Source: Armatimonadota bacterium
GTDB lineage: Bacteria > Armatimonadota > UBA5829 > DTJY01
Length of the DNA: 64,000 nt
Assembly: GCA_023511795.1 (NCBI GenBank)
Contig: JAIMAU010000006.1
Span: forward strand, 13,159-77,158
Direction of reading: 5' to 3'
Shown here: positions 28,018 to 60,904 of the stretch, one piece after another
Layout of the letters: each line of letters begins with the position of its first letter
Numbering within the stretch: the first letter of the stretch is position 1
Translations under genes and position numbers: made by a program
The notes under the pieces: generated by a model
The model's database searches: none
Told to the model about the DNA's origin: nothing
The model's input: only the letters and a program-made list of their open reading frames with translations

Positions 28018-28025
28018 GGAAGGTC

Positions 28026-34655: not shown

Positions 34656-34756
34656 TAGCCTTACCTCCTGTCTTCGATTTTTGAAAAGTTAACCGTAAAT
34701 AAGAACCACTAGCTAATATTAAATCCTTTTCTCCCTTTTCAATATTTGCCAGCGGC

Positions 34757-35557: not shown

Positions 35558-35596
35558 TCATTCCTCCTTGCCTTCATAGCTCAGCGGTTCGCTATG

Positions 35597-40996: not shown

Positions 40997-41668
40997 CTAA
41001 CCGTCTTGGTCCACCCTGGGATGGTGGGCAACCTTTACGGCACTCGGTCTAATCACACGGCCATTCATGGTGTACCCTGTCCGAACCTCTTCAACGATAG
41101 TTTCGTCGGGGTATTCCGTCGTATCCACACGTGCAACAGCTTCATGCTTCATTGGGTCGAATTTTTCACCAACAGCTTTTATCGGTTCAACGCCTTCCTT
41201 CGCGAGGAGATCACGGAGTTGACGCAGGATGAGTATTACACCTCCATGCAGAGAGTCAAAATTCTTTGTCTCTTCTGCAGCTTTGATAGCCCTTTCAAAG
41301 TTGTCAAGAATTGGAAGCAACCGAATAATGAAGTCTTCGGTAGCAAATTTCCTTACTTGCTCCAACTCCTCCCTAGCACGGCGTCGGTAGTTGGTAAAAT
41401 CAGCAAGCGTTCGAAGGAAATTGTCATGCTCCTCCTCCGCTCGCCTCTCTGCTTCCTCACACCGTTCCTTTAAGATGCGAATGTCTTCGGGAAGTACTTC
41501 TTCTGCGGTGGATTCCACGACAATATCCGCTTCTTCAGGCGATTCTGAAAACACCTCAGGCGGAACTACGCCAGTCTCCTCAAGCTCTTTATCCCGGTGT
41601 TGTGCCTCAGACTCGGAAGAGTTTTGCGCTGAATTATTATTTATTGGAATTTTCCGTTTATTTGCCAT
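40997..41668 (-). CDS. grpE: nucleotide exchange factor GrpE
   Basis: 223 aa; ...DNFLRTLADFTNYRRRAREE...LLPILDNFERA...MNGRVIRPSAVKV. Confidence 0.9.
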   Translation of the reverse strand: MANKRKIPINNNSAQNSSESEAQHRDKELEETGVVPPEVFSESPEEADIVVESTAEEVLPEDIRILKERCEEAERRAEEEHDNFLRTLADFTNYRRRAREELEQVRKFATEDFIIRLLPILDNFERAIKAAEETKNFDSLHGGVILILRQLRDLLAKEGVEPIKAVGEKFDPMKHEAVARVDTTEYPDETIVEEVRTGYTMNGRVIRPSAVKVAHHPRVDQDG

Positions 41669-41767: not shown

Positions 41768-43342
41768 TCACTTACCCGCTGGCGGCTGAGCAGTCGCCTC
41801 GGTGTCATCATTACGCTTTTTAATTATGGTATTAATCCTGAGAACGGCGTCTGCAATCTCAGCAGCAGCCTTTAGAGCGTGAACTTTAACCTTTAAGGGA
41901 TCAACTACCCCCAGCTCCCACATATCGGCAACTTCGCCAGTATCGCATTCAATGGCAAGTGAGACCTTGCCTTGTTCTGCTTGGGCGGCTATCACGTCCT
42001 CGACTTTCTCAAGGGGGTTGAACCCAGCATTTGCAACGATTTGGCTCAGAGGTTTCTTAAGGGCCTCCGCCACACAATCAACGCCATAGGCTGCCATACC
42101 CTTAACCCCATCTCTCAGGAAAGAAACCTCTCTCGATGCAGCAATCTCGATAGAGCCACCGCCTGGAACAACCCCGCCTATAATAGCGGCCTGGACTGCT
42201 GAGGCGGCGTCGCGCGCAATCCGCTCGCGCTCGTCTCTGACCTCCCTTGTTGCTGCACCGACAAGTAGTGTGGCGGCAGGCTTCCCAATTCCGCCCATAA
42301 TACGTGTATGTTCCAACCTCTCATCTTCATATACCCGTGCGCATCGCCCAACAAACAAAGATAACTCCTCAAGCGATTTCTTTAGACCCGCTCGCTTTAT
42401 TGTCTTTGCACCCGTATGTTCCACAATCCTTGCTATGTCCCTCGTAGATACACGACGGAGAACTATAATACCAGCATCGGTAAGTAACTCCTCTGCCAAA
42501 TCTGCAACACCTTTATTTGTAACAACGAGACCAATTCCCAAATCAACGATTTTCCGCAAATTTTCACAAAACTCGTTTTGAAGTTGAACATATCGCGCAA
42601 AACCCGATTCTGTGCCAAGTGCATCATCTTCCATTCGTTCGGGCTCAAGCGCGTCATCAATTGCCAACACCTTGACATCTTTAAGCGATCGCGGCATCTG
42701 GCGGTTCATGCGCTCTTTCTCTATAATGAGACCTGTAAATACTTCGTTCTGCGCGCCTTCTTTTGCGACAATAGTATCAGCAAGTTTGAATGCTGGTTCC
42801 GCCAGTTTTTCTTTACCCACAAGCTTTGCCGCCTGGACGACCAAGTCTGCAATCTCGGCATCCTCTCTTCCGGCGATATAAGCCGCCTGCCAAAGAAGTG
42901 GGTCGTCGAAGTCCTTGACTTGCTTGCTTGCGGCTTCCAATACCTCAAGGGCTCTTTTCATACCAATGGAAAGCCCTTGTATCACCTTTGTCACCGGCAC
43001 GCCTCTAGATACCCTGCTGACTCCTTCCATTACAAGGGCAGAAGCTAGGATGGCAGCGGTAGTTGTGCCGTCGCCTACTTCTTCATCTTGAGCCTTGGCG
43101 GTACGGATAACTAACCTTGCGGCAGGGTGACTTATATCAATCTTGTCGAGAATCGTACTGCCATCATTGGTAATTGTCACGTCGCCGAACTTGTCAACGA
43201 GCATGCAATTCAGACCTTTAGGTCCAAGCGTTCCTTCAACAGACGAAGCAACCGCGCGCACTGCGGTTGCATTCGCAAGCAATGCCGCAAGGCGCTCATC
43301 CACGTCCGCCGACTTACTTACCTGCTTAATGTTTGAACTCAT
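41768..43342 (-). CDS. archaeal-type (group II-like; bacterial 'group III') chaperonin, thermosome/CCT family
   Basis: 524 aa. GTLGPKGLNCMLVDKFGDVTITNDGSTIL...HPAARLV...QDEEVGDGTTTAAILA, GIIVLRRVSTRDIARIVEHTGAKTI, VVPGGGSIE, ELGVVDPLKVKVHALKAAAEIADAVLRIN all match thermosome signatures, not GroEL (no GGM tail, no GroES partner). Confidence 0.88.
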   Translation of the reverse strand: MSSNIKQVSKSADVDERLAALLANATAVRAVASSVEGTLGPKGLNCMLVDKFGDVTITNDGSTILDKIDISHPAARLVIRTAKAQDEEVGDGTTTAAILASALVMEGVSRVSRGVPVTKVIQGLSIGMKRALEVLEAASKQVKDFDDPLLWQAAYIAGREDAEIADLVVQAAKLVGKEKLAEPAFKLADTIVAKEGAQNEVFTGLIIEKERMNRQMPRSLKDVKVLAIDDALEPERMEDDALGTESGFARYVQLQNEFCENLRKIVDLGIGLVVTNKGVADLAEELLTDAGIIVLRRVSTRDIARIVEHTGAKTIKRAGLKKSLEELSLFVGRCARVYEDERLEHTRIMGGIGKPAATLLVGAATREVRDERERIARDAASAVQAAIIGGVVPGGGSIEIAASREVSFLRDGVKGMAAYGVDCVAEALKKPLSQIVANAGFNPLEKVEDVIAAQAEQGKVSLAIECDTGEVADMWELGVVDPLKVKVHALKAAAEIADAVLRINTIIKKRNDDTEATAQPPAGK

Positions 43343-43411: not shown

Positions 43412-44449
43412 TTATCCAATACTTAATTGGGTCAGCATCTGGCTGAGGCTCGATGCCATTAGCTCAACAGCGGCCACTGCACGCCGATAATCCATCCTTG
43501 TAGGCCCTACTACTCCTATGCTCCCGCATACGCGATCGCCGATGTGATAGTTTGCTGTAACAAAGCTGCAATCGCTTAGCTCACAGAACTGGTTTTCCTC
43601 GCCGATAATGACGGTTACATCCTTGCCAAGTAATGCCGTGCTCAAAACCTGGAATAGGACTTTGCGCTTTTCAAGGGCGTTGAGAATCATCGTAAGCTTT
43701 TCTGTTCGGGAAAATTCCGGCTGTTTGAGAATATGGCTTGTTCCGTCTATGAAAACCTCGCTGTCAGTAGCCGCAACCAGCGCCTGCTTTACGAGGGCAA
43801 CCACCTTTTTGTAAAAAGCAGTCATTCTAAAAAGCTCTGCCGGCAGAGCATTTCTAATCCTAGTAGTAAATTCGCGCAACTCAGCACCTTGTAGACGCTC
43901 GTTAACTAGACTCCCAATAGAATTAAGGTCAACAGTGTTGAGGTCGCTCTCCCAATCTAGCAATCGGTGGTCAATATGTCCGGTGCTAAGTACAGTGATT
44001 ACAAGAAGCTTGCCCCGGCCAATTGGAGAGAGTGCTACATAGCGAACACTTATGGTGCCCATCTGTGGCTTAGTTGCCAGAGAAGTATATTGGGCCAATC
44101 CAGACAGAATCCGGCACGTCTGTAAAAGGATGTTCTCAATTTCGCTCTCATAAGGATTATATGCCGCCCTTGCACGCGAAGCTTCTGCTCGCCCCAGCTT
44201 GGGATCAGGCATTAGCTTGTCAACATAGTACCGATAGCCAAGGTCTGATGGTACGCGGCCCGCAGATTTGTGCGGTTGTTTCAAGTAGCCCAGCTCTGAC
44301 ATAGCTGCAAGCTCATGACGAATCATCGCGGGCTTAATTCCGAAGTTGTAGTTCGCCGCTAGCGTTTCCGAACCTACCGGTTCTGCAGTCCTCACATATT
44401 GATTTACAATTGCTTCCAGTATTTTGCTTCTCCGCTCGCCGAGTTCCAT
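43412..44449 (-). CDS. hrcA: heat-inducible transcription repressor HrcA
   Basis: Start at ATG (MELGERRSKILEAIV) 6 nt after GAGGTGA; winged-helix N-terminus; C-terminus VCGSIGVVGPTRMDYRR. Confidence 0.9.
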   Translation of the reverse strand: MELGERRSKILEAIVNQYVRTAEPVGSETLAANYNFGIKPAMIRHELAAMSELGYLKQPHKSAGRVPSDLGYRYYVDKLMPDPKLGRAEASRARAAYNPYESEIENILLQTCRILSGLAQYTSLATKPQMGTISVRYVALSPIGRGKLLVITVLSTGHIDHRLLDWESDLNTVDLNSIGSLVNERLQGAELREFTTRIRNALPAELFRMTAFYKKVVALVKQALVAATDSEVFIDGTSHILKQPEFSRTEKLTMILNALEKRKVLFQVLSTALLGKDVTVIIGEENQFCELSDCSFVTANYHIGDRVCGSIGVVGPTRMDYRRAVAAVELMASSLSQMLTQLSIG

Positions 44450-44503
44450 CGGCTTCACCTCAAATAACAAGGTAGCCGTATGCGCAAACCTTCTTCTGAT
44501 AAG

Positions 44504-44618: not shown

Positions 44619-44945
44619 CTATGTAGTATTACCTATAATAAAAAGTGCCATGCCTATGGAAACTGCCGCCATTCCAATGTATTGCATTGGCGATACTTTT
44701 GGGCTAAAAATTAGGAGAATTGCTACTTGAGCACCCAGGAATCCGCCAGCAGTACACAAGCCAAGCGCAACATTTGGATTCATTGAACGATAGAGTAACA
44801 TTAGAAACCATATGCTTGAGGCTCCAAAAACATTGCCGCAGATATAACCTATCAACCATTTGCTCGGATTGGCGCTCCCATACTTAAAAAACACCTGCGC
44901 CGCCGCTTGCATTAGCCAAAATACAATTAGCCAAACGAGGTTCAT
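44619..44945 (-). CDS. small 4-TM membrane protein (SMR/DMT-like)
   Basis: Hydrophobic ORF; likely start MNLVWLIVFWL; exact start uncertain. Confidence 0.4.
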   Translation of the reverse strand: MNLVWLIVFWLMQAAAQVFFKYGSANPSKWLIGYICGNVFGASSIWFLMLLYRSMNPNVALGLCTAGGFLGAQVAILLIFSPKVSPMQYIGMAAVSIGMALFIIGNTT

Positions 44946-45176
44946 ACCTGCCCTGCCCCCAACTCCAAAAGCTTGATCTCGACAAGCGGAAAATAAAGCC
45001 TTATCCCCCAACGACATCTAACCATGGATAGGAGCGCAAGCTTAGTGACAGCATAGGTCACAAGCAAGCATGGCTCGGATTAAAGGATTCCATACACCTG
45101 CATTGCTTACTTAACTGCCCGCCCAAAAAGCGAACTAAGACAACCGCTATTTTGCAGCCAAGCTTCTCCACAACTT

Positions 45177-45941
45177 CTACTTTAACCCCATCTCTCTTAA
45201 GTTGCGAAGGCTGATTGCTAGGCTCTCGAATGGATCTCTTTCGCAAATATCCTGCTCAACAAGGTACCATTCAACTCCGGCTTCCATAGCAGCTTCCAAT
45301 ATCTCAGGCCAGTTCAGGTTGCCCTCGCCAACCTCCATCATGATTTGCTGGCCGCCCCTATTGCCCATATCCTTCAGGTGAAGCAATGGAACGCGGTCTT
45401 TGCACCGCAGAATCCACTCTGCTGGGTCGCCCCCACCATGCTGAACCCAATACGTATCAATCTCAAAATTGAAGTAAGTGGGGTCGCTCTCGGTGCGAAG
45501 GATTTCTAAGCCAATCTTGTCGCCAAATTTTTCGAATTCAAAGCTATGGTTGTGATAGCTGAAAGTTAGACCACCTTGGGCTAGCTTCTTTGCCACCTTA
45601 GAAGCTTCCTTTGCAAACTGATGGAAGCCCTTAGCATTTCGGTATTCTTGGGGCATCCCACCAACTGCAATGTGCTGACATCCCCACAGTTGATGTTCTT
45701 CGATGACCCGTTCCGTTTCGTTCCGCATGCGGTGGTAAGGAGTGTGGGTAGCACAAATATAAACACCTTCACCATCAACAATTTTCTTCAGCTCAAGCGG
45801 GTCGATTGGGCCAAAGCCAGAGACTTGGACTGCCTCATATCCGATTTCTCGAATCTTCTTAATTGTCTTGGCAATATCAGCAGGAGTTTGCGTAAACTCG
45901 CGCACAGTATAGAGTTGTGCACCAATTCGTGATTCGCTCAT
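45177..45941 (-). CDS. sugar phosphate isomerase/epimerase (xylose isomerase-like TIM barrel)
   Basis: 254 aa; GAQLYTVRE N-terminus, HNHSFEFE, metal-binding E/D/H pattern typical of AP_endonuc_2 fold. Confidence 0.8.
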   Translation of the reverse strand: MSESRIGAQLYTVREFTQTPADIAKTIKKIREIGYEAVQVSGFGPIDPLELKKIVDGEGVYICATHTPYHRMRNETERVIEEHQLWGCQHIAVGGMPQEYRNAKGFHQFAKEASKVAKKLAQGGLTFSYHNHSFEFEKFGDKIGLEILRTESDPTYFNFEIDTYWVQHGGGDPAEWILRCKDRVPLLHLKDMGNRGGQQIMMEVGEGNLNWPEILEAAMEAGVEWYLVEQDICERDPFESLAISLRNLREMGLK

Positions 45942-45955
45942 TATGCATCCTTTCC

Positions 45956-46522
45956 TTAAGGCAATTCTCGAATATAAATATTCTTAAACCAAAGCTTGCT
46001 GCCGTGATGCTGAAGCTCAATTGGTCCCTCATCCGGCACGCCGCCTATGCTATTCATCGTCACTTGGTCAACAACCTGAACACCATTCTCAACGACGGTT
46101 ACCTTCTTGCCACGCATGATGATGACAAAGCGATTCCATTCACCCACTGGCCTGTCCATATTCCTTGTCGGCTTATTATTGTCATTGTACAATCCGCCCG
46201 AACCAATGGGATTATCCCAAATTTGCACCTGAGGTTTTCCACGCAGATAAATGCCACTGTCTCCACCTTTTGGAATTTTCCAGTCAACTATCAATATAAA
46301 GTTGCGGTAGTTCTTTTCGGTAATAAGGTTCTTTCCCTTGCCATCATATTCCAACACGCCGTCTACAACCTTCCAATGTTTCTCAACCTCGGCATCGTGC
46401 TTCCACCCTGTCAAGTCTTTGCCATTAAAAAGCGGTGTGAACCATGGAGGAATGCCCTCAGAAGCATAACCAACACAACCCAGAACCGTGCTAATAATTA
46501 AAATTAACACAATTTTTTTCAT
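45956..46522 (-). CDS. DUF1080 / 3-keto-disaccharide hydrolase-like protein (secreted)
   Basis: 188 aa; signal peptide; LFNGKDLTGWKH...WKVVDGVLEY...NFILIVDWKI...GDSGIYLRG. Confidence 0.75.
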   Translation of the reverse strand: MKKIVLILIISTVLGCVGYASEGIPPWFTPLFNGKDLTGWKHDAEVEKHWKVVDGVLEYDGKGKNLITEKNYRNFILIVDWKIPKGGDSGIYLRGKPQVQIWDNPIGSGGLYNDNNKPTRNMDRPVGEWNRFVIIMRGKKVTVVENGVQVVDQVTMNSIGGVPDEGPIELQHHGSKLWFKNIYIRELP

Positions 46523-46536
46523 AAAATTACCCTCCT

Positions 46537-48054
46537 TTACTTCATTTCGCTTAACATTTGCCGTGCCTGAGCAAGAGATGAATATAGCTCGCGATATATA
46601 GCAAAGCGCTCTTCATAAACCAAAGCATATTTGCGACGGGGCTCGAAAGTTCGTATTGGTACCGTCCATGTCCTAATTGCTTCTTCAATATCAAGTATTC
46701 CTGCCCCTCCACCTGCAAGAATAGCAGCTCCCATGCAAGTTGCCTCAGTAACACGCATTGTGGTGAGTGAAATGCCCAGTATATCAGCCTTTATCTGCAT
46801 CCAAGTATCACTTTTCGCCCCGCCGCCGACAGCCCTTAGCTCAGCAAGGCAGAAACCGGCATCCCTTAAGATTGATAGGTTCCATTTCATTTCGTAAGTG
46901 ATACCATCTAGAAAGGCACGTAGAACCTCCGACCTATTGGTGGAGAGGGTCAAACCAAATAGCAACCCAGCCCCGTGGGCATCAAAGTGGGGCGTGCCTG
47001 TTGGCCCAAAGTGGGGAAGAAGTATAACACGCGAAGGCTCTTCTGCTGCCGCCGATATTATTTGGTCGTAGGGATCTTTTCCATTCCTTCGGGCTTCTTC
47101 TGCCTCCTTGGTTGCAAAATTATCGCGTACCCATCGTAGAACGCTTCCACCAGTAATGTTAAATGCAACCGTCGTGTATATATTTGGTAATACATGCGGA
47201 TAAGTTGCCAAGTTAGCATTCATGAGTTCATCGCTTAGGATAAGGCGGTCAATAGCAGGGCAAATACATTCAGTCGTACCGATGGAATATGCAGCTTGGC
47301 TTGGCGAGGCTGCCCCACATCCAAGTGCCCCAACTGGTTGATCATGACCACAGACTGACACCTTGACTTCATTTGCCAAACCGAGCTTGGCAGCCATTTC
47401 AGGTTTGACAGTGCCAACAACCTCTCCAGAAGGAATCACTTCAGGCAATCGGTCAGCGGCAAGTCCGACGGCTTCTAGAATCTCCGCTGACCATTCCATG
47501 CGGCTAACATCAAAAAGCATCGAACGTGCGGCCATCGTATAATCGGTCTTTACTTCACCAGTCAGTACCCAAGCAAGTAGGTCCTCACAGAAAAGAAACT
47601 TCAGCGTCTTGGCCCATTTCTCTGGCTCATTTTGTTTGAGCCACAAGAGTTTATATAGGGAATACATAGGATATGGTGTGTGTCCTGTTATTCGATATAA
47701 CCTTTTGGCGCCGAACTCCATGCTCCAAGGGCCAACAAGCGAGGCAGCGCGAGCGTCGGAGGAAACCATTATGCTACTTATCATCTGGCCACAGGAGGTG
47801 ATAGCAGTGAAAGCTTCTCCCTGCGATGCAATGCCAATAGCCTTCACAGGATCTAAACTCCGAACAGCGGCCGCTGCTTTCTCAATCATTCGGCAAGCAG
47901 CGCTTACCACGGCGTGAGGATCAAGCTCACAGGCTCCTGGAAACGGAAATAGGAGAGGATACTCCTCGTACGCCCACGAAAGCTGGCTACCCTTCTCATC
48001 GAAAACTACTGCCTTTACCCCTGTCGTACCTATATCTATGCCCATTAAACTCAT
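46537..48054 (-). CDS. FGGY-family carbohydrate kinase
   Basis: 505 aa; MGIDIGTTGVKAVVFD N-terminal ATPase motif. Confidence 0.85.
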   Translation of the reverse strand: MSLMGIDIGTTGVKAVVFDEKGSQLSWAYEEYPLLFPFPGACELDPHAVVSAACRMIEKAAAAVRSLDPVKAIGIASQGEAFTAITSCGQMISSIMVSSDARAASLVGPWSMEFGAKRLYRITGHTPYPMYSLYKLLWLKQNEPEKWAKTLKFLFCEDLLAWVLTGEVKTDYTMAARSMLFDVSRMEWSAEILEAVGLAADRLPEVIPSGEVVGTVKPEMAAKLGLANEVKVSVCGHDQPVGALGCGAASPSQAAYSIGTTECICPAIDRLILSDELMNANLATYPHVLPNIYTTVAFNITGGSVLRWVRDNFATKEAEEARRNGKDPYDQIISAAAEEPSRVILLPHFGPTGTPHFDAHGAGLLFGLTLSTNRSEVLRAFLDGITYEMKWNLSILRDAGFCLAELRAVGGGAKSDTWMQIKADILGISLTTMRVTEATCMGAAILAGGGAGILDIEEAIRTWTVPIRTFEPRRKYALVYEERFAIYRELYSSLAQARQMLSEMK

Positions 48055-48081
48055 AAAGAATCACCAGCCGACAACCAAGGC

Positions 48082-49053
48082 TCAAATCTTCCCGATAAAC
48101 TCCGACAATTTTGTTGCTGACCCTGCTATTTTATACACTTCGCAAATTAAATGTCTTATCACTTCGGCAACCGCCACCTGTGCGTCTGAAATACTCCCCC
48201 CGCTACCAAGAACACTCTCGTAAGGCTGGCGTATGTCAGTGGCGATGTTAATCTTTGCGATACCATTTTTCACCGCTTCATTAATGTACGACTGTGGAAT
48301 CCCAGATCCACCATGCAGGACAAGAGGAATTCCGGTCGCATCGCGTAGTTTTTTTAAGTGCTCAATATCAAGTCTAGCCTTGGGTTTTGGTCGGTCTTTT
48401 GCCGCCGCGGAAATCGCCCCATGAACCGAACCAATCGAAACAGAAAGCCAATCCACTCCTGTTCGCTGAACAAATTCCCTCGCTTCGTTGGGGTCTGTAA
48501 ATCCTTTTTTGCTGGCAAAAAGCTCTTCATATGGAGGAAGTGGACCTGGTTCATGGCCGAGTACCGCGCCTAACTCTGCTTCAACCAGCACACCTTCTTG
48601 ATGTGCAATCTCGACGACGCGCTTAGTCACAGCGATATTCTCCTCAAAATGGAGCCGCGAGCCGTCAATCATAACCGAGTCATAGCCCAAAGATATAGCT
48701 TCCGTAATAAGGGGTTCCCAATCGCAAAGTAAGCCATCCTCATCAATTACCGGCGTGTGGTCAAGATGGAGCGTTGACACTCGGGGGTCGGCATGGCGGC
48801 GATATTCTTCAGCAATGTGGCTTAGGCTCTTTGCCTCGAACTTTATGAGTTCAAGTCGCGCGACAGCCAGCATTCCAAACGTATCAAGCTCCGCCAATGT
48901 CTTAAGAATCGGCTCAGCCATTGGAAGGTATGGAACATTGAACGCTGGAATGACAATTTTATGCTCAACAGCGGCTGAGACCATACGTGCAAGTCGATTT
49001 TTTGGAGCTGGCACCCGGTCGACGATGTTATAATTTTGATGCTTAATATCCAA
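48082..49053 (-). CDS. class II ketose-bisphosphate aldolase (fructose/tagatose-bisphosphate aldolase family)
   Basis: 323 aa; PAFNV, HLDH, LVLHGGSG motifs; TTG start. Confidence 0.85.
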   Translation of the reverse strand: MDIKHQNYNIVDRVPAPKNRLARMVSAAVEHKIVIPAFNVPYLPMAEPILKTLAELDTFGMLAVARLELIKFEAKSLSHIAEEYRRHADPRVSTLHLDHTPVIDEDGLLCDWEPLITEAISLGYDSVMIDGSRLHFEENIAVTKRVVEIAHQEGVLVEAELGAVLGHEPGPLPPYEELFASKKGFTDPNEAREFVQRTGVDWLSVSIGSVHGAISAAAKDRPKPKARLDIEHLKKLRDATGIPLVLHGGSGIPQSYINEAVKNGIAKINIATDIRQPYESVLGSGGSISDAQVAVAEVIRHLICEVYKIAGSATKLSEFIGKI

Positions 49054-49163
49054 TGTTCAACTCTCTAATAAACTTACCACTAAATGATTTACCTGTCGGC
49101 CTCAAAGGATACCATGACAAGTTCATTAATATGGCGGCTTGCTTCAGCGTACCTTGTATTTAA

Positions 49164-49964
49164 CTAAGACTTTAAACCTTTAAAGCTTTCTTCAAATAAT
49201 TCTATATCTTCTTTCAACATATCCGGCTTATGTTCATTGTAGATGCCAACGCAGACCATATCCTGTGGACGCATGACTCTCGCAGCAAAGCCAAATGCCT
49301 CTTTAGGATCGTTACGTCCAGCAGCAAGAATTTTGTAATGAATCGCCGGCTTCGAAAGTCTTCGTATGAGGTGCGCCATGGTTTCCCTATCCTCTTGCCA
49401 AAACCATTCTTGCGCACCGTGAACGTGTGCCGGATTTTCATCGCGACGCATCGAGTTGTAATATGAACACATGTAGTAATCCACATCCAATGCTTTTTCC
49501 GCCCACTCTATAACTCGAGGGTCGTGAGCCGCGATGCCAGCCAACAAACCAGCAGAGCGAATCATTTTAATCAGCTCAGGTATATGGCAAAGTTCCCCTT
49601 TTACAAACTGGTGGTCCATGTAACCACCATGAATGTGACAAGCTTTTGCGCCGCCTTCAATTGCTCGATTAATACACAGCTCGGGCGGACCCTCACTTGG
49701 GCAGGTCTGGGCGAACCACTGAATCTTACCACCCTCATCCCAGTGTTCTCTTAAGAAGCCAACCACCCGGAGGTCGGTTCGCGCTATGACGGTGTTTATA
49801 CCAAGCGACTCGGCTTCCCGTAACAAAGCCTTGATTCTCTCAAATGTAAACCAGCTCAGCATTCGCTGGTCCATTTCCATACTTTGATGGGAAAATCCGC
49901 TGATTGGATTCGTTCCCAGAATGAAACGGCTGACTTCCACACCTTTGATTGCAACTTTTTCCAC
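49164..49964 (-). CDS. hypothetical protein (possible TIM-barrel enzyme), first of the large sugar operon genes
   Basis: 266 aa ORF co-oriented and tightly spaced with aldolase. Confidence 0.5.
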   Translation of the reverse strand: MEKVAIKGVEVSRFILGTNPISGFSHQSMEMDQRMLSWFTFERIKALLREAESLGINTVIARTDLRVVGFLREHWDEGGKIQWFAQTCPSEGPPELCINRAIEGGAKACHIHGGYMDHQFVKGELCHIPELIKMIRSAGLLAGIAAHDPRVIEWAEKALDVDYYMCSYYNSMRRDENPAHVHGAQEWFWQEDRETMAHLIRRLSKPAIHYKILAAGRNDPKEAFGFAARVMRPQDMVCVGIYNEHKPDMLKEDIELFEESFKGLKS

Positions 49965-49997: not shown

Positions 49998-50492
49998 CTA
50001 AAATTTTGGCTCAAACACTGTGAGGATACCAACGCGTTTGATGCGGCCGACCATGCGCTTTCTAACCTCAGAATCGCACTCCACTAACGCGAAATAGTTC
50101 TCCGCCGCCCGCTCGACAGCTGAGATAAAATCTTCCAGGTTTATGTGTATTCGTCCAGACTTATCCTGCTTAAAGTGAAGTTGAGGATTCCCGTCGGTAT
50201 ACGCATAACGTCCGTCTTTTACAGTATAGCTATGGAGAAGTTTGCATCGAATCGCATCCCACAAGTCATTTGGGTCATACCGCTTATCGTCAAAAAAGCG
50301 AGCCACAAATTCGCGGAATAGGCTTGCATTGCTGTCATGGCCTGCGTATAGGCAAGTCAGATAATCTATTACGCACGCGGCGAGAATAAACGCACCCATC
50401 TTTGCCCCGCCAGCAGATGCCTTTCGTACATCGCCCAGGGCCATGTCAATAATTGCATGTCGAGCACGAGCCACTATTTCTTGTTCGTCCAT
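49998..50492 (-). CDS. hypothetical protein
   Basis: Start moved to ATG preceded by GGAGGGGGAGA SD (MDEQEIVARAR...), 165 aa; no motif recognised. Confidence 0.45.
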   Translation of the reverse strand: MDEQEIVARARHAIIDMALGDVRKASAGGAKMGAFILAACVIDYLTCLYAGHDSNASLFREFVARFFDDKRYDPNDLWDAIRCKLLHSYTVKDGRYAYTDGNPQLHFKQDKSGRIHINLEDFISAVERAAENYFALVECDSEVRKRMVGRIKRVGILTVFEPKF

Positions 50493-50656
50493 TCTCCCCC
50501 TCCCCTGCGAAAAACGACAACCTTCAGCCAAAAGTGAAGACATAGTTCGCCACTCCTTCGGTAGTCTCTTAGCCGCCATCCGGTGTATTTTTGGGGGGTT
50601 GCAATGAAAAATTTCGCTGACATGTAAATTCACTCCTGCTTGCCAACCCTGCTAAC

Positions 50657-52467: not shown

Positions 52468-53622
52468 ATGCCTCAAATCTTTGTCACAAGCACAGAATCG
52501 GATAATCCGTTTGCGATTGATATTGCTGTATACTGTAAGCAGACTATAGATATAGCCGACATTATTTCTCTAAAGACATTTGCGAACAGCGAATTTTGCC
52601 CGCGCTTTATCAGTGATGAGAACGACCTTCAGAATATTGGCAACAAGCTGTGCAACACGACTGTCATTATTGTTTCCACAGCCTCCAATAGTGTAAGCCG
52701 AAACGAACTCTCCTGGCGGACCCTACTAGTTGCAAGAGCAGCCAAAGATAATGGTGCTAAACAGGTCATTCTAATTGAGCCTGACCTTTTCTTCAGCGCT
52801 CAAGATCGAGGACCTAGACCCGAACACGGAGAGGTGGATTTTAAGCGCGACATATGGGACTATAAGAAATTTGACGGCCAACCTTTCAGTAGCAAGCTTT
52901 ACGCGGAGTCGCTGGCGCTCGCAGGAGTTGATGCTGTAATTACCGTACACAATCACTCAGCTTCCGTGCAAAGGCTTTTTAATCGAATCATGAATGGACG
53001 TTTCCTAAACCTATCTCCCGCCGAGGTTTTCGCAGACTATATCCGCAGGTCCGATGTAACACCAAGCCTGCATTCTGGTGATGGCGTGCTAATATGTGCG
53101 CCAGATAAAGGAGCAAGGGGCTTTGCCGTTGAGGTACAAAATAAGTTGGGTATGCCCTCTGCAGGATTGCTCTATATTGCTAAGGAGCGAACAGGCGAAC
53201 GGCATATATCAAGCTTTATTGACCCATCATCACCATGTCCTTTGGAAGCCATCCAGGGGAAGGACGTCGTAGTATTTGACGATATGGTGCGCACTGGCGG
53301 AACAATTAAAGAATGCTGTCGTCTACTGAAAGAAGCTGGCGCAGGCAGGGTTGTCTTCTTCGTTACCCACTTTTACTCTTCCCCAGAGGTACGCGAGAAT
53401 CTCAACAGCCCCGACCTCGACGAGATTATCACTACCAACACCCTGCCCTCAATCTTGAATCGAGACATGCAGGGACGACTGCGACGTAAGCTCACGGTCC
53501 TAAAGATAGAGAAGTGGATATCCCACCACATCTTAAGTTATTTGGGCTTTCCCACCGACCACCTTACTGGCCAATTGTATTCAGTAGATATGTCCTCTAA
53601 AAATCCACGTTGGTCACCATAA
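52468..53622 (+). CDS. divergent ribose-phosphate pyrophosphokinase-like (Prs-family/PRTase) protein
   Basis: 384 aa; N-domain Prs-like (SAQDRG vs YARQDRK), PRPP-binding loop VVVFDDMVRTGGT; longer and divergent from the canonical prs at 19003-19953. Confidence 0.65.
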   Translation: MPQIFVTSTESDNPFAIDIAVYCKQTIDIADIISLKTFANSEFCPRFISDENDLQNIGNKLCNTTVIIVSTASNSVSRNELSWRTLLVARAAKDNGAKQVILIEPDLFFSAQDRGPRPEHGEVDFKRDIWDYKKFDGQPFSSKLYAESLALAGVDAVITVHNHSASVQRLFNRIMNGRFLNLSPAEVFADYIRRSDVTPSLHSGDGVLICAPDKGARGFAVEVQNKLGMPSAGLLYIAKERTGERHISSFIDPSSPCPLEAIQGKDVVVFDDMVRTGGTIKECCRLLKEAGAGRVVFFVTHFYSSPEVRENLNSPDLDEIITTNTLPSILNRDMQGRLRRKLTVLKIEKWISHHILSYLGFPTDHLTGQLYSVDMSSKNPRWSP

Positions 53623-56385: not shown

Positions 56386-57513
56386 ATGCAACTCTCACCA
56401 CGTGAAAGAATTCTACATGTTTACAAGGGCAAGATACCTGATGCGGTACCCTTCATGCTTGACCTATCGCATTGGTTCTACCACAAAACCAGAGCGCCAT
56501 GGGACCTTAGCTCCAGCTACCAGGAGCCTGAGAAAGCGTTAATTGACTATCATAAGCGCATGGGCGTTGGTTTTTACATGCCAAATCTGGCAGCTTTCTT
56601 CTCAATAGAGCATACAGACGGCGTCAATCTGGAAATTAATAAGGAATTCCAGGCTGGCAAATGCGAAATTGTGTGGCGTTATAATACACCCATTGGAAGC
56701 ATTGAGAGAAGACGCATTTGGAATTCCAATACGTATTCCTGGTCGGTCAGTCGCTGGGGATTTGAGTCAGCGAATGATATACGGGTGCTTGAATATGCAC
56801 TAACATCCCGCAGATATGTGCCGCAGTGGGACAATTACAAAGCATGGGCAGACTATGTTGGCGATATAGGAGTTGTCTATATTCCGGCAGGGTACAGCGC
56901 AGTCGGACAACTCCTTCACTATTGGATGGGAATCGAGCGATTTGTGTACGCCGCCCATGATTACCCCAATACAATGCGCGAGGTCGTTAAAAAAATCAAC
57001 GCCAATAATCTTGAATGCATAGACATGCTCTGCTCATCCCCAGCTGAGGTTATAATAATGGGCGATAATTTTTCAAGCGATGTCCAGCCGCCACATTTCT
57101 TCAAAGAATGGTCACAAAACTACTACTTTGAAGCCATCAGCCGCCTTCATTCTGCTGGGAAATTCGTTGCAATACATATAGACGGGCGATTGAAGGGTGC
57201 ACTGGCGATGATTCGTGCGACAGGCGCCGATTGTGCTGATGCGGTAACACCCACACCCATGGGCGACCTAACGCCAGATGAATGCCGGTCAGAGGCAGGC
57301 CCGGAGCTTATTCTTTCTGGCGGCGTTTCGCCGGAACTCTGGCTACCCAACACAAACATCGAAGACTTTAGGTATGCTGTAATGCGATGGCTGGACCTCC
57401 GGAAGCAAAGCCCTCGGTTAATCGCTAATGCCGGCGACCAAGTTCCCCCAGGAGCAGAAGAAAGCCGGATTGCTCTGATGCGCGATTTGGTTGAGAAGTA
57501 CGGCAAATACTAG
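56386..57513 (+). CDS. URO-D/MtaA-like family protein, paralogue 2
   Basis: 375 aa; same family features as 35597-36697 and 57521-58615. Confidence 0.7.
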   Translation: MQLSPRERILHVYKGKIPDAVPFMLDLSHWFYHKTRAPWDLSSSYQEPEKALIDYHKRMGVGFYMPNLAAFFSIEHTDGVNLEINKEFQAGKCEIVWRYNTPIGSIERRRIWNSNTYSWSVSRWGFESANDIRVLEYALTSRRYVPQWDNYKAWADYVGDIGVVYIPAGYSAVGQLLHYWMGIERFVYAAHDYPNTMREVVKKINANNLECIDMLCSSPAEVIIMGDNFSSDVQPPHFFKEWSQNYYFEAISRLHSAGKFVAIHIDGRLKGALAMIRATGADCADAVTPTPMGDLTPDECRSEAGPELILSGGVSPELWLPNTNIEDFRYAVMRWLDLRKQSPRLIANAGDQVPPGAEESRIALMRDLVEKYGKY

Positions 57514-57520: not shown

Positions 57521-58615
57521 CTACCACAATTCTTTCAAGAGTTCAATCATGTACTTGAAATTCTCAAACTTGGCGTTTGGGGGAACAGCATGGTCGACGG
57601 CAGGAATCCAGCCAAGACGCGCATAAAGCTTAGTTGCCTTTGGAACTACCTCTGCCTCAACATCAGCCCTTTCGCCAATTAGACAACGTTTATCCAAACC
57701 ACCAATGAAAAGGAACTGTGGATATCTCTCAGCATACTCAACAATGTCTTGCTCGGCAGCTATCTCAACAGGGCTTGTGCCGTCTACCCCAGCTTCGATC
57801 CAAAAAGGAATCAATTCGCTTATGTGCCCGTCGCTGTCAACGAACACTTTGTCTGCACAGATACTCTTCGCTTCTTGCACAAGCTCTCGATATCGTGGCA
57901 AGAATTTATCTCGAAGGATAACAGGTGAAACCATGCATGCAGTTTTATATGCCATATCTTCATTAATCATAAGATTATCCACGTGTGCATCGGCAAGATG
58001 CTTGCGCAGTAACCGCACATTGAAATCGAGCACGAAATCAAGCATCTCATCCACGAGCTCTGGCAAGTCATAAAACGCCATCGAAAGACCTTCGAAGCCC
58101 ATCCACTGTCGTAGTGTCCAATAGAAGCCTTGTATGGTAAACATCACGGGACGCTCAGCAGTATGGGAGCGCCGAACGGCCTCATCGAAGCATTGTCCAC
58201 GGCGCCTAGGGTCCTCAGGATCATAGCGCTCCTTCATCCTCAGGAAATCATCTCTGTTTTCGACAGGAAACTTAAGCCATTTCCGAGTGACAAAGCCACT
58301 ACCCTGGGCATCTCTGCGTTCGGTGCGGAGGGCACCTTCCTCATCATAGTAGGTAACTTGACCATCTTTTTCTTCGACAATTATCAACTCGAATTTTGGG
58401 CAATGTGATGTGTTGAGAGGAATGCCTTCGAACCAATCATATCCAAGAAATTCGGCGGTGCTAATGCCCTCGGGATGCCCCTGCTTTATCCACTCGTCCA
58501 TAGTTCCCTTTCGCGTAGGAAAGGTCCAGATGAATGGTCTGTCGGGCCGCTGAAAATCCATTATAGCGCGATATCGTTCTCTCGGCGTTGTAGAATGAAC
58601 GCTATTCACAGACAT
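57521..58615 (-). CDS. URO-D/MtaA-like family protein, paralogue 3
   Basis: 364 aa; convergent with paralogue 2, 7-nt gap. Confidence 0.7.
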   Translation of the reverse strand: MSVNSVHSTTPRERYRAIMDFQRPDRPFIWTFPTRKGTMDEWIKQGHPEGISTAEFLGYDWFEGIPLNTSHCPKFELIIVEEKDGQVTYYDEEGALRTERRDAQGSGFVTRKWLKFPVENRDDFLRMKERYDPEDPRRRGQCFDEAVRRSHTAERPVMFTIQGFYWTLRQWMGFEGLSMAFYDLPELVDEMLDFVLDFNVRLLRKHLADAHVDNLMINEDMAYKTACMVSPVILRDKFLPRYRELVQEAKSICADKVFVDSDGHISELIPFWIEAGVDGTSPVEIAAEQDIVEYAERYPQFLFIGGLDKRCLIGERADVEAEVVPKATKLYARLGWIPAVDHAVPPNAKFENFKYMIELLKELW

Positions 58616-58673: not shown

Positions 58674-60674
58674 TTACAATTCTAGATTCAGCCATTTCAA
58701 TTCGTCCGGCGATAATTGTACATTTAGCCCGGCAAGAAGAGTCCTCAGCTCCTCAAGATTTGCTGGCCCAGCCAGGGCAAATGTCGGGAATGGTTGGCAA
58801 AGTACATAAGCAAGGGCAATGCTTACCGGGGGAACACCCTTCTTTTCTGCCATTTCCAAAAGCCGCTCGGCACGAAGGATGTTGTCCTCACTATGCCAGC
58901 AACGAATCATCTCTGGGTCGGTATGATTCCTGGGATGACCATAGGCGAAGAAGCCCCGGGCAAGGCTCGACCATGCCATGAGTGGCATCTGGGTTTTCAC
59001 AAACCATGCACGGGACTGGGAATCGGACGAGGCAAGGCAGCCAGCCCATGGTGGCTCTATCATTCTGGCGAGGCTAAAGTTGTTGCTCACTGCAGCAATC
59101 CCTTTGAGTCCTTTTTGTCGAGCGTACTCGTTCGCCGCCTCTATACGCTCAATTGTCCAATTTGACACGCCAAAGACCTTTATTCTCCCTGCGTGCAAAT
59201 GCTCATTTAAAACATCGATAAACTCACCTACCGGTATGTCAGGGTTATCACGATGCATCATATAGATGTCCACATAATCAGTGCCCAATCGGTCAAGGCT
59301 CTCAAAAAGCTGGCTTGTCAAATCTATAGGGTTACAGAAAGGCGTATGCGCGCCCTTATCTAGAATGACCACCTGCTCGCGGATTCCACGATTTCTAATC
59401 CACTGACCGAGAATACGCTCACTATTACCGCCACCATAGATGTAAGCCGTATCGAAGCAGTTGCCACCTTGGCGGAAAAACTCGTCGAATAGGATTGAGC
59501 AGGATGCGAGTGGGGAAACGCCGCCGCCACCAACGGCGCCCATCGCGATGCGAGATACCGGTTTCTCAAGCCCAGGAATCGAGCCATACCTCATATTTGC
59601 ATCCGAGCGTATTGTCAGCGGCCGATGGTCAATCGTCGGGAAGTTTGCGTCCGGCTTCTCGATATCGTAGACGAGACCCACAGCCTGGCGCCACATGTCC
59701 AAGGTCTTCATATTGCCCAAGCTGTCGTCCCAGGTCATTGCTGGTGGCGGGGCTTGGCGCTTCTCGATATTCTTAGCCACTATATCAGCCTCATGTGTGT
59801 AACTGCTAGCGTCATTTGGCACGAGCACTTCTTTGGGCTGCTCGCCATTTCGGTTCACGACGATTCGTGCAGGCTCGCCCGCCTTGCTTCCAAACCACGG
59901 TGCAGGAATTAAGATGTTGCCTTCGGAGCCGAAAATGCGCACCACATTCTCTTGGTTCAGCGCCACACCTGTCGAAATTTGCGCGATGATATCACCTGGG
60001 AATTGCATTATTCCGACCGCCCACTCGTCAACCCCCGTCTCGCCAAGGTGAGCAACACCTTTCACCTCAATAGGGTCCTCAAAAGGCTTCCCATGAGCCG
60101 CGCCTGCGATTAGGCGAGATATTGAAGTAGTATAACAGCCAACATCCAGAATTCCACCACCTCCAAGGGCGTTGTTAAAAAGTCGGCTCTCAGGATTAAA
60201 TCCGGCATGGAAACTAAAAGTTGCTTGAATAATCCTCACATCGCCTATGGCTCCCTCGCGAATTAGCTCGACAAGCCTGGTTATCTGGGGATGGCAGCGA
60301 TACATAAAGGCCTCCATAAGAAAGACATCGTGCCTCCGAACAGCCTCAATGACTGCCATCGCCTCGGGGTAGTTTAAAGTGAGCGGCTTCTCACAAAGTA
60401 TGTGCTTTTTCGCCTCAGCAGCCTTTACCGCCCATTCGGCATGCATCGGATGAGGAGTCGAGATATAGACTGCCTGCACGTCTGGATCGGCAAGGAGCGC
60501 CTCATAACTCCCATATCTACGCGGAACGTTGTATTCATCGCCAAACCGGTCTGCCGCTTCTTGGGTACGACTCCCAACGGCAAGTACTTCCCCGGTGCTT
60601 GACTCTGCAACCGCCTTCGCAAATACGCCTGAAATTCGACCTGTGCTTAAAATTCCCCAAGCTAGCTTGCCCAT
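58674..60674 (-). CDS. fusion protein: N-terminal Gfo/Idh/MocA NAD(P)-oxidoreductase + C-terminal aldo/keto reductase
   Basis: 666 aa; N-terminus GILSTGRIS...EKPLTLN (Rossmann + EKP); C-terminus GGNCFDTAYIYGGG...IKVFGVSNW (AKR motifs). Confidence 0.75.
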   Translation of the reverse strand: MGKLAWGILSTGRISGVFAKAVAESSTGEVLAVGSRTQEAADRFGDEYNVPRRYGSYEALLADPDVQAVYISTPHPMHAEWAVKAAEAKKHILCEKPLTLNYPEAMAVIEAVRRHDVFLMEAFMYRCHPQITRLVELIREGAIGDVRIIQATFSFHAGFNPESRLFNNALGGGGILDVGCYTTSISRLIAGAAHGKPFEDPIEVKGVAHLGETGVDEWAVGIMQFPGDIIAQISTGVALNQENVVRIFGSEGNILIPAPWFGSKAGEPARIVVNRNGEQPKEVLVPNDASSYTHEADIVAKNIEKRQAPPPAMTWDDSLGNMKTLDMWRQAVGLVYDIEKPDANFPTIDHRPLTIRSDANMRYGSIPGLEKPVSRIAMGAVGGGGVSPLASCSILFDEFFRQGGNCFDTAYIYGGGNSERILGQWIRNRGIREQVVILDKGAHTPFCNPIDLTSQLFESLDRLGTDYVDIYMMHRDNPDIPVGEFIDVLNEHLHAGRIKVFGVSNWTIERIEAANEYARQKGLKGIAAVSNNFSLARMIEPPWAGCLASSDSQSRAWFVKTQMPLMAWSSLARGFFAYGHPRNHTDPEMIRCWHSEDNILRAERLLEMAEKKGVPPVSIALAYVLCQPFPTFALAGPANLEELRTLLAGLNVQLSPDELKWLNLEL

Positions 60675-60778: not shown

Positions 60779-60816
60779 TGTCCAATATTGGATTATCTGT
60801 CCAATAATAGTATACT
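60779..60816 (+). promoter_or_regulatory. promoter TTGGAT-N17-TATACT overlapped by 12-bp perfect palindrome TCCAATATTGGA and direct repeat TGTCCAATA x2; candidate repressor operator
   Basis: Divergent intergenic region between Gfo-AKR fusion and HAD gene. Confidence 0.4.
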
Positions 60817-60904
60817 AGATTTACTAGCAATACCTTCCAAACTTAAGCTAATACGTTTGCAAATTTTGAATACTAATACTAAAGAAAGGTTTTCACAAGC
60901 GGAA

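Follow-up and report, generated by a model that had tools for sequence, protein, structure and literature searches.

The operon described here, from a 64,000-nucleotide stretch of the genome of an uncultured Armatimonadota bacterium (hereafter the window), sets two protein families of the oxidative route of glycoside cleavage in a row with a sugar kinase and an aldolase. The genes present, their homologies and conserved catalytic residues, and the synteny with its phylogenetic pattern are shown; what we favour, as a possible rather than a probable reading, is a cytoplasmic pathway in which a ketose is phosphorylated and cleaved and which is fed by keto-sugar chemistry. The operon is a useful lead, not a new kind of system.

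Gene content and arrangement of the operon

Pfam scans of positions 45177-49964 found, all on the minus strand, a TIM barrel, a DUF1080 protein, an FGGY kinase, a class II aldolase and a protein without a family, which bears out the content, adjacency and shared orientation of these genes as given in a preliminary description of the window. With their neighbours and one distant gene of interest, they are:

44619..45017, minus strand: small membrane protein with weak SMR-like similarity (PF00893, E 0.0048, below cutoff)
45177..45941, minus strand: OGE-type xylose-isomerase-like TIM barrel, 254 aa (PF01261 AP_endonuc_2, 51 bits against a cutoff of 31.1)
45956..46522, minus strand: short exported DUF1080 protein, 188 aa (PF06439 3keto-disac_hyd, 153.9 bits against 26.8)
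46537..48054, minus strand: FGGY-family sugar kinase, 505 aa (FGGY_N and FGGY_C, Pfam)
48082..49053, minus strand: class II (metal-dependent) ketose-phosphate aldolase (PF01116, 220.9 bits)
49164..49964, minus strand: 266-aa protein with an AKR-like TIM-barrel fold, of a large uncharacterised family
49998..50633, minus strand: protein without a family, first gene of the cluster (no Pfam or NCBIfam match)
58674..60674, minus strand: Gfo/Idh/MocA–aldo/keto-reductase (AKR) fusion (Pfam PF01408, PF22725 and PF00248)

Gaps of 14 nt separate the TIM barrel gene from the DUF1080 gene and the DUF1080 gene from the kinase gene, which argues for co-transcription of the three, and the kinase and aldolase genes lie 27 nt apart. 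A wider gap of 110 nt separates the aldolase gene from that of the 266-aa protein, and 33 nt upstream of the latter, just beyond the five-gene stretch, lies the first gene of the cluster, whose orthologues also stand directly upstream of the 266-aa gene in loci L001, L089, L094 and L099. Because these orthologues are called at 164-181 aa, the true start of this protein is probably internal. At the other end, the small membrane protein gene lies 159 nt downstream of the TIM barrel gene and is kept in L001 only; its membership of the operon is uncertain. The same gene arrangement was found again in two independent assemblies (L001 and L095). Neither finding that would have refuted the preliminary description was made: the assignment of the DUF1080 gene to PF06439 was confirmed, and the operon did not turn out to be a conventional tagatose or galactitol pathway with an identifiable PTS or dehydrogenase.

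The TIM barrel and the DUF1080 protein

The closest solved relative of the TIM barrel is the O-glycoside β-eliminase AtOGE (8bvk; E 2.7e-31, 32% identity over 222 positions), followed by the AL1/BT1-type structures 8tcd and 8tcs (E about 4e-18) and 8tct, the three spanning 1e-16 to 1e-18, and no epimerase or isomerase appeared among its PDB matches at better than 1e-3. In AtOGE the metal is held by H132, D163, H189 and E233, and H134 is catalytic (PMC10628242). In our alignment AtOGE H132, H134, D163, H189 and E233 correspond to H130, H132, D162, H188 and E229 of the TIM barrel, and these five metal or catalytic positions are invariant in all 21 family members compared (21/21). Judged by its sequence, the TIM barrel is a member of the 3-keto-glycoside lyase branch of its superfamily, and it is predicted to depend on Mn2+ and to have a 3-keto sugar as its substrate. 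Its family keeps 60-83% identity across at least seven phyla, and no signal peptide is visible in it.

Gfo/Idh/MocA dehydrogenases, DUF1080 proteins and AtOGE-type TIM barrels are the families of glycoside cleavage by oxidation, elimination and hydration, a route that has been recognised only recently and for which its authors expect many architectures. In the cluster of Agrobacterium tumefaciens, AtOGE is accompanied by the dehydrogenase GlycDH, the putative hydratase AtHYD and a Gfo reductase (PMC10628242). The TIM barrel of the window has the same H-x-H, D, H and E set and the same short form of about 255 aa with no lid domain; unlike that cluster, the operon has neither a flavoenzyme or Gfo dehydrogenase nor a second TIM-barrel hydratase; it combines a DUF1080 protein with a kinase and an aldolase instead. 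The oxidative glycosidase clusters BT2156-2160 of Bacteroides and AL1-AL5 of Alistipes (10.1101/2024.03.25.586180; Liu et al. 2021, PMC8121099) are alike in that an AL1/BT1-type TIM lyase adjoins an AL2/BT2-type DUF1080 protein; moreover, the TIM barrel shares an HNH motif with the solved lyase 8tcd, and the DUF1080 protein an LQxHG motif with the BT2157-type structures 3osd and 8v31. However, the TIM barrel, the DUF1080 protein and the TAT-exported Gfo oxidoreductase of those clusters are all predicted to be extracytoplasmic (10.1101/2024.03.25.586180), whereas in the window only the DUF1080 protein is exported and is about 90 residues shorter, no dehydrogenase is adjacent, and a cytoplasmic kinase and aldolase are attached.

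The PF06439 match covers residues 28-185 of the DUF1080 protein and positions 2-187 of the 187 of the profile, yet the protein, at 188 aa (about 165 aa when mature), is a minimal form that falls short of the BT2157/AL2-type jelly roll of about 270-280 aa with its five 'finger' insertions, and it can be aligned to 8tda, 8v31, 3osd and 4hxc, all of BT2157 type, only at residues 28-94 and 156-187. The conserved channel residues of BT2157/AL2, in BT2 numbering, are E103, N134, E164, Q166, Y190, K245, Q273 and H275. With a mapping of motifs onto that numbering that we infer from alignments of relatives, LQHHG would keep the Q-x-H pair, GGLY the Tyr, and PQVQ a Gln, with Gln where 4qhz has Glu; GDSG would offer Asp where relatives have Asn, and E103 and K245 could not be placed. 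A single-sequence AlphaFold model (pLDDT 53) was too poor for use. A signal peptide is found in the protein, which may also have a lipobox (VLGC), and in all six of its orthologues. Its setting differs from that of BT2157 and AL2, where a TAT-exported Gfo/Idh/MocA 3-dehydrogenase is encoded alongside the extracytoplasmic protein, as no Gfo gene is adjacent here. With an exported DUF1080 protein and cytoplasmic neighbours, a substrate could pass directly from one to the other only through a transporter, for which the operon has no gene.

Its orthologues lie directly after the FGGY gene in L001, L095, L096, L097, L100 and L114, and this adjacency is kept in seven assemblies with kinase identities of 68-95%. 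What follows the DUF1080 gene varies: VanW/G5 genes in L096 and L100 and a GH3 gene in L097, not the TIM barrel. The TIM barrel family is mostly stand-alone elsewhere and in other Armatimonadota overlaps GNAT acetyltransferase genes; a rearrangement with no bearing on function could therefore have brought it behind the kinase. Among 80 loci of TIM barrel orthologues from other phyla, outside the operon clade, none (0/80) has a DUF1080, FGGY or class II aldolase gene beside it. The commonest functionally informative neighbour is a Gfo/Idh/MocA gene (10-11 of 133 immediate neighbours), followed by a second AP_endonuc_2 barrel (5/133), a company that resembles the AtOGE and levoglucosan clusters. 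The adjacent Gfo genes, at about 11 of the 80 loci, belong to about six non-orthologous subfamilies. These phyla are likely to have many Gfo genes, and several of the pairs are convergent, so part of this adjacency may be chance.

These neighbourhoods speak for an explanation that we consider unlikely but give appreciable weight, namely that a ketose kinase–aldolase operon of a common kind (fuculose, xylulose or rhamnulose type) has taken in the DUF1080 protein and the TIM barrel as passengers with unrelated jobs. The former could be secreted, for instance, to bind glycans or to act as a glycanase, and the latter could be a stand-alone housekeeping enzyme, and the different cell compartment of the DUF1080 product fits such a separation. 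On the other hand, the 14-nt gaps favour co-transcription, the DUF1080 gene keeps its exact place behind the kinase gene even between lineages with no more than 68-80% kinase identity, and the three families accreted by the operon are exactly three of one known pathway, a coincidence that is hard to accept.

The reading of the operon as an oxidative 3-keto-glycoside route therefore stands in part. In its favour are a TIM barrel of AtOGE type with all five residues, a confirmed DUF1080 protein and a Gfo gene inside the operon of sister lineages; the short, exported DUF1080 protein beside otherwise cytoplasmic products and the absence of its partners from the TIM barrel loci of other phyla count against it. 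The comparison with thuAB proved a poor one; the window has a single ThuA match, which is the GH42M-like domain within a putative glycosidase.

The Gfo–AKR fusion as a candidate dehydrogenase

The fusion had been described as the only Gfo/Idh/MocA gene of the window, and phmmer (E<1e-5, ORFs of at least 70 aa), together with Pfam scans of most large ORFs, detected no other. Its Gfo half matches PF01408 and PF22725 at residues 6-254 and its AKR half PF00248 at residues 396-660, an architecture conserved in about 40 clusters at 36-55% identity. It lies 8.7 kb from the operon and 58 nt upstream of a URO-D-like gene, with which it appears to be co-transcribed, and is only 21% identical to the Gfo protein encoded in the operon of L089; we regard it as a candidate dehydrogenase acting in trans only.

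A complete oxidative glycosidase of the BT2156-2160/AL type would require more of the fusion: its Gfo half would oxidise a glycoside at C3, the TIM barrel and the DUF1080 protein would eliminate and hydrate, and its AKR half would reduce 3-keto-glucose to glucose. We consider this very unlikely, although the TIM barrel and the DUF1080 protein are of the right families, the conserved Gfo–AKR architecture implies coupled oxidation and reduction, and in the Chloroflexi locus L045 a TIM barrel orthologue is followed by an AKR 42% identical to that half of the fusion. AL3 and BT3 are periplasmic TAT proteins (10.1101/2024.03.25.586180), whereas the alignment gave no N-terminal Sec or TAT signal for the fusion, and neither it nor the L089 Gfo has a visible signal peptide. 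Moreover, the DUF1080 protein would work outside the cytoplasm and the TIM barrel inside; the fusion is not orthologous to the Gfo of the sister operon or to any Gfo adjacent to a TIM barrel (26-69 bits); nadE, a PRPP-synthetase-like gene, a sensor kinase and others separate it from the operon; and the kinase and the aldolase would be left with no role. Among cytoplasmic systems, the levoglucosan pathway LgdA-LgdB1-LgdB2-LgdC of Bacillus smithii combines a Gfo dehydrogenase with xylose-isomerase-like TIM barrels for oxidation, elimination, hydration and reduction (PMC7676230). Locus L089, with a Gfo protein and a TIM barrel that have no visible signal peptides, is closer to it in layout than to Bacteroides. 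The end product of the Lgd pathway is glucose, however, and FGGY kinase, aldolase and DUF1080 protein are all absent from it.

The kinase–aldolase core and the proposed pathway

Every orthologous locus of sufficient length has the aldolase–FGGY pair, which is the invariant core of the operon. By NCBIfam the kinase is nearest to xylulokinase and stays under every curated cutoff (TIGR01312 XylB, 309 bits against 380; gluconokinase, 231 against 649; fuculokinase, 203 against 471), and it is about equidistant from solved xylulokinase and gluconate kinase. The HLDH, SVHG and LHGGSG motifs of the aldolase align with HLDH, TSHG and MHGSS of the Giardia FBA (3gak); motifs of this type are the Asp/His, His and His motifs of class II aldolases, which hold the catalytic Asp and three Zn-binding His. 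None of its 20 NCBIfam matches reached the cutoff of an aldolase equivalog (FBA, GatY, KbaY or IolJ), the best being TIGR01859 (177 bits against 343). Homologues span only 88-94% of its ORF, and the true start probably lies 15-20 codons inside the listed one. The aldolase family is 60-70% identical across phyla and sometimes solitary, and the enzyme could be the housekeeping glycolytic one, which would count against a role in a dedicated sugar pathway. No signal peptide is visible in the kinase or the aldolase.

The 266-aa protein matches no Pfam or NCBIfam family and belongs to a group of more than 1400 sequence clusters without a family annotation. It has an AKR-like TIM-barrel fold and lacks the AKR Tyr/Lys catalytic pair; taking fold, Asp-Tyr-Lys-His tetrad and sequence level together, it does not belong to the AKRs. 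It is present in all loci of the window's clade for which upstream sequence is available.

In the FGGY tree the loci with a FucI-like isomerase (L098, L101, L103, L104 and L105) are basal, and in these outgroups the aldolase and kinase pair is followed by the isomerase. The L-fucose (FucI-FucK-FucA) and L-rhamnose pathways consist of an isomerase, an FGGY kinase and an aldolase, and L098, L101 and L103 follow precisely this three-gene scheme with orthologues of the window's kinase and aldolase; the window differs in that its aldolase is of PF01116, not of the FucA/RhaD family PF00596, and in that its clade has lost the isomerase. That the core pair is the sole invariant part and is partnered elsewhere by a FucI-like isomerase speaks for the passenger explanation; that the window's clade has no isomerase for making the ketose speaks against it. 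Its loci have instead the 266-aa protein and varying mixes of Gfo, DUF1080 and TIM barrel genes. A Gfo/Idh/MocA gene lies within the operon in the sister lineages L089/L099 and L100, and in L089/L099, where the row is Gfo–aldolase–FGGY–TIM barrel, it stands two genes upstream of the TIM barrel; all three oxidative-route families thus occur in this operon family, although no single locus has Gfo, DUF1080 and TIM barrel together. Neither the FucI-like isomerase nor an L089-type Gfo is present in the window.

The row of L089/L099 would also suit a polyol, cyclitol or sugar-acid pathway with the logic of inositol (IolG–IolE/IolI–IolJ) or tetronate (dehydrogenase–OtnI–OtnK–OtnC) degradation, in which a dehydrogenase would yield a keto compound, the TIM barrel would dehydrate it or shift its carbonyl, the kinase would phosphorylate the product and the aldolase would free DHAP, a scheme that we regard, steps included, as quite improbable. 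IolJ is of what we take to be the same family as the window's aldolase, and a keto-isomerase also needs the first step of an OGE-type enzyme, enolisation beside a ketone. Nevertheless, the matches of the TIM barrel to IolE (44.6 bits against 290, its sole NCBIfam match of note) and of both Gfo proteins to IolG (71-102 against 355) are far below cutoff, equivalents of IolD, IolB and IolC are absent, the kinase is of the FGGY family rather than PfkB or DUF1537, a dehydrogenase is missing from the window's operon, and the closest relatives of the TIM barrel are 3-keto-glycoside lyases.

In the cytoplasmic pathway that we favour, the FGGY kinase and the class II aldolase would act together on a ketose-like sugar, which would be phosphorylated and then cleaved to trioses, and a front end would supply the substrate of the kinase through a keto-sugar intermediate. 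A dehydrogenase, encoded in the operon in sister lineages and necessarily elsewhere in this genome, would oxidise the sugar or glycoside; the cytoplasmic TIM barrel would deprotonate C2 beside a metal-bound 3-keto group, with β-elimination, hydration or a keto shift as possible outcomes; and the DUF1080 protein would act on a related substrate outside the cytoplasmic membrane. The product would be phosphorylated and cleaved rather than merely reduced back to glucose. The substrate, the order of steps and the participation of a dehydrogenase in trans are what we infer, and the lack of a dehydrogenase gene in the window's operon counts against the scheme. The oxidative route as known leads to glucose, and a literature search found no characterised pathway in which an FGGY kinase or a class II aldolase is joined to it, which also counts against the scheme. 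A bolder form, which we think rather unlikely, is an undescribed, non-reductive branch of oxidative cleavage in which the keto-sugar yielded by Gfo, OGE-type and DUF1080 proteins, instead of returning to glucose, would become a ketose for the FGGY kinase and the aldolase, and the 266-aa AKR-fold family would be a new sugar-converting enzyme in the place of the FucI-like isomerase.

In a phylum that has been little studied, the locus links two families of the oxidative route with a kinase and an aldolase, and the related genomes make a swap plausible, with keto-sugar enzymes where a classical sugar isomerase is missing. It also brings forward two highly conserved, unstudied families that can easily be expressed and tested, the 254-aa OGE-like TIM barrel and the 266-aa AKR-fold protein. 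Should the link prove functional, the route would be more than an "alternative glycosidase", since it would also feed triose metabolism directly.

The kinase–aldolase operon and its relatives

Seven co-oriented minus-strand ORFs lie across 44.6-50.6 kb of the window, with the divergent nadE on one side and hrcA on the other, and were assigned by Pfam and NCBIfam as listed here.

Genes of the cluster at 44.6-50.6 kb
49998-50633, minus strand, protein with no family in Pfam or NCBIfam
49164-49964, minus strand, 266-aa protein with no family in Pfam or NCBIfam
48082-49053, minus strand, class II aldolase (PF01116, 220.9 bits)
46537-48054, minus strand, FGGY kinase (Pfam, NCBIfam)
45956-46522, minus strand, DUF1080 protein (PF06439, 153.9 bits)
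45177-45941, minus strand, xylose-isomerase-like TIM barrel (PF01261)
44619-45017, minus strand, small membrane protein

The gaps along aldolase–kinase–DUF1080–TIM barrel are 27, 14 and 14 nt, the gene order is repeated in an independent assembly (L001), and the aldolase is 100% identical to an annotated protein of an NCBI Armatimonadetes MAG. Given these domain calls, the order kept in L001 and the detection of both Gfo/Idh/MocA and aldo/keto-reductase (AKR) domains in a second gene (58674-60674, minus strand), the preliminary description was therefore correct in observing a sugar operon and, apart from it, a fused Gfo/Idh/MocA gene. A promoter and terminator scan gave counts equal to those of shuffled sequence and was uninformative. 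Next to the cluster, a thermosome-like chaperonin (41768-43342, minus strand; PF00118 Cpn60_TCP1, 382 bits) lies between hrcA and grpE, with its flanking heat-shock operon genes at 43412-44470 and 40997-41668; the arrangement is also found in L001 and in another independent assembly, L095, and the protein is similar to the 'group III' chaperonins of bacteria, which have been described in Carboxydothermus. Two PRPP-synthetase-like genes are present in the window, a canonical prs (19003-19953, minus strand) and a divergent copy (52468-53622, plus strand; 384 aa; TIGR01251 118.8 bits, just above the cutoff of 113) placed directly after nadE, as in L001 and in the related locus L089.

The kinase is nearest to xylulokinase, below the cutoff; the class II catalytic motifs are retained in the aldolase, which matches no equivalog. 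Because GatY, KbaY and FBA all score below cutoff for it and no PTS genes were found, a conventional tagatose/galactitol or PTS pathway, which the preliminary description had named among the outcomes that would speak against its proposal, was rejected. In a metagenome scan with the window kinase, the matches of which were annotated by phmmer and Pfam and placed in a neighbor-joining (NJ) tree, the aldolase–kinase pair was present in every orthologous locus with enough sequence. On the basal branches of the tree a FucI-like isomerase, about 500 aa long, comes after this pair (L103, L101 and L098, at 61-68% kinase identity; L104 and L105, at 44%). The isomerase (PF02952) recurs in linkage with this aldolase family, in L101 (9625-12667) and in two distant genomes (L006, L008) where its orthologues also lie near aldolase orthologues; it shows a distant NCBIfam match to the sulfoquinovose isomerase SftI (80-91 bits vs a cutoff of 700), and in L101 a GH4 α-galactosidase comes after it. 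No FucI-like isomerase was found in the window by tblastn, and the window's clade has none; its loci have the following orders instead (hyp266, the 266-aa protein).

Gene orders in loci related to the operon
Window, L001 and L095: hyp266–aldolase–kinase–DUF1080–TIM
L089/L099: hyp266–Gfo–aldolase–kinase–TIM
L100: hyp266 … Gfo … aldolase–kinase–DUF1080
L096, L097 and L114: kinase–DUF1080

Gfo, DUF1080 and TIM genes, which represent the three families of the oxidative route, are thus all found in the operon family, only as pairs and never all three in one locus. The 266-aa gene occurs in every window-clade locus with upstream sequence; in L101 the 7 kb upstream do not contain it. The simplest history would start from an isomerase–kinase–aldolase pathway that later exchanged its front end.

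The TIM barrel and the DUF1080 protein

Among solved structures the TIM barrel is closest to 8bvk (E 2.7e-31); next come 8tcd, 8tcs and 8tct. The last three carry the annotations 'sugar phosphate isomerase' and 'xylose isomerase-like TIM barrel'; presumably they are the '3-keto-β-glucoside 1,2-lyases' AL1/BT1 of the Bacteroides/Alistipes oxidative glycosidase system, an identity that a literature search did not confirm. The structure 8bvk is that of AtOGE, the Agrobacterium tumefaciens O-glycoside β-eliminase, a Mn2+-dependent enzyme that converts 3-keto-O-glucosides into the aglycone and 2-hydroxy-3-keto-glucal, with H132, D163, H189 and E233 as metal ligands and H134 as catalytic base (PMC10628242). 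In the same order these residues align with H130, D162, H188, E229 and H132 of the window protein at an overall identity of 32%, and none of the five varies among 21 family members. Conservation in the family is unusually high: its members are exactly 254 aa long and 60-83% identical across Armatimonadota, Poribacteria, Bacillota, Planctomycetota, Latescibacterota, Gemmatimonadota and Chloroflexi.

Membership of the adjacent protein in PF06439 is secure, in a minimal form: it aligns to BT2157-type structures of the oxidative glycosidase system, which are about 90 residues longer, only at residues 28-94 and 156-187. A motif comparison with the channel of BT2 found the Q-x-H pair and one Tyr retained, Asn changed to Asp and Glu to Gln, and two residues unplaceable; a single-sequence structure model (pLDDT 53) was set aside. 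Since a signal peptide stands at the start of this protein and of 6/6 orthologues, with a possible lipobox in the window copy, DUF1080 works on the outer side of the cytoplasmic membrane. No signal peptide is visible in the TIM barrel, nor is there room for one, because its ORF begins 14 nt past the stop codon of DUF1080. Kinase and aldolase activity must take place inside the cell, on the opposite side from the exported DUF1080.

Around the TIM barrel in 80 orthologous loci, each with ±10 kb of flank, neither an FGGY kinase nor this aldolase nor the 266-aa protein was found, and a DUF1080–TIM gene pair conserved across bacteria was rejected, phmmer and a clade HMM having returned 0 DUF1080 matches within ±10 kb in the 80 genomes. 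In a Pfam census of 133 immediate TIM neighbours DUF1232 came first (18 matches, all in related Poribacteria), followed by Gfo/Idh/MocA (10-11) and a second AP_endonuc_2 barrel (5), and PF06439 was not among the recurrent families. These absences speak for the main rival explanation, that DUF1080 and the TIM barrel are passengers beside an ordinary kinase–aldolase operon; the clade's lack of the isomerase and the 14-nt gaps speak against it, and we consider this explanation rather unlikely. The TIM-adjacent Gfo proteins divide into about six subfamilies, none orthologous to another (about 25% identity), and several of their genes are convergently transcribed with TIM. Such varied partners fit a conserved TIM enzyme that acts on a common intermediate from interchangeable dehydrogenases, although the adjacency could in part be due to chance because Gfo genes are probably abundant in these phyla. 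In other Armatimonadota (L090-L093) there is a 4-nt overlap between the TIM gene and one or two Acetyltransf_3 (GNAT acetyltransferase) genes, and in L089 a GNAT gene lies 48 nt downstream; this arrangement points to a functional link, which the window does not have.

The Gfo–AKR fusion, the 266-aa protein and nearby genes

The fusion architecture is conserved, about 40 clusters (50% identity clustering) matching over the full length at 36-55% identity, which makes a shared pathway very probable for the two halves; each half also occurs as a stand-alone protein. Nothing ties the fusion to the operon as its dehydrogenase or reductase, the role proposed in the preliminary description: it has no signal sequence, and nadE, the PRPP-synthetase-like gene, a flavin reductase, a STAS protein and a sensor kinase lie in between. 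Its Gfo half, 21% identical to the in-operon Gfo of L089, was rejected as a relocated copy of the latter, of which tblastn found no remnant in the window. The sole hint of a link is a Chloroflexi locus in which the gene after a TIM orthologue encodes an AKR with 42% identity to the fusion's AKR half. The full model first proposed, with the fusion as both oxidase and reductase, is unlikely. Beside the fusion are a divergent NagD-type HAD phosphatase (60788-61669) and then a sulfatase (61694-63139).

The fusion lies 58 nt upstream of one of three URO-D-like genes (PF01208) in the window (35597-36697, minus strand; 56386-57513, plus strand; 57521-58615, minus strand). Their relatives score weakly as MtaA/CmuA-type methyltransferases, and such genes recur in unrelated phyla near homologues of the aldolase, the FucI-like isomerase, the TIM barrel and the 266-aa protein (L002, L006, L008, L034, L047, L056, L092, L101, L107 and L110); a role in sugar metabolism, e.g., demethylation of O-methyl sugars, is speculation. 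One of them belongs to a putative glycan-utilisation cluster (27259-36697) with an SDR, a DHDPS-family lyase, an M55 D-aminopeptidase and two large GHL6/GHL10-type hypothetical glycosidases. The only ThuA match is the GH42M-like domain of one of these putative glycosidases (29117-31315), and with no ThuA/ThuB pair the suggested resemblance to thuAB was rejected. A 1068-aa protein with Golvesin_C, CBM4_9 and CarboxypepD_reg domains is encoded at 21696-24902.

The 266-aa protein belongs to a family of >1400 homologous clusters (57-94% identity, several phyla) with no sequence match in Pfam, NCBIfam or the PDB. It has an AKR-like TIM-barrel fold, and the invariant residues of the family (H26, D64, C109, H110, H112, H147, D162, C166, H209, K211 and C238) do not reproduce the AKR Tyr/Lys pair; they look more like a putative metal site. 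Its gene is co-transcribed with a ROK kinase, beside an MFS transporter and DUF4434, in L134-136, and adjoins DegT aminotransferases in L003 and L100 and a methyltransferase and a URO-D-like gene in L002. With neighbours so varied, no single conserved context could be traced; the protein is sugar-associated.

Proposed pathway

The best-supported reading, which we hold tentatively, is that the kinase and aldolase form a cytoplasmic pathway and receive their ketose through keto-sugar chemistry instead of from an isomerase. An OGE-type TIM barrel would deprotonate C2 of a 3-keto sugar, another part of the genome would provide the dehydrogenase, and the cytoplasmic kinase and aldolase would process the ketose coming from this keto-sugar front end. 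The role of DUF1080 is the weakest part of the model, and the exported protein cannot pass substrates directly to cytoplasmic enzymes. The literature consulted contained no pathway joining DUF1080 to an FGGY kinase and no relevant follow-up on OGE. The family of every component is known already and the oxidative route has been published; what is new is the association of oxidative-route families with a kinase–aldolase pair, an isomerase that appears to have been replaced, and the split between compartments.
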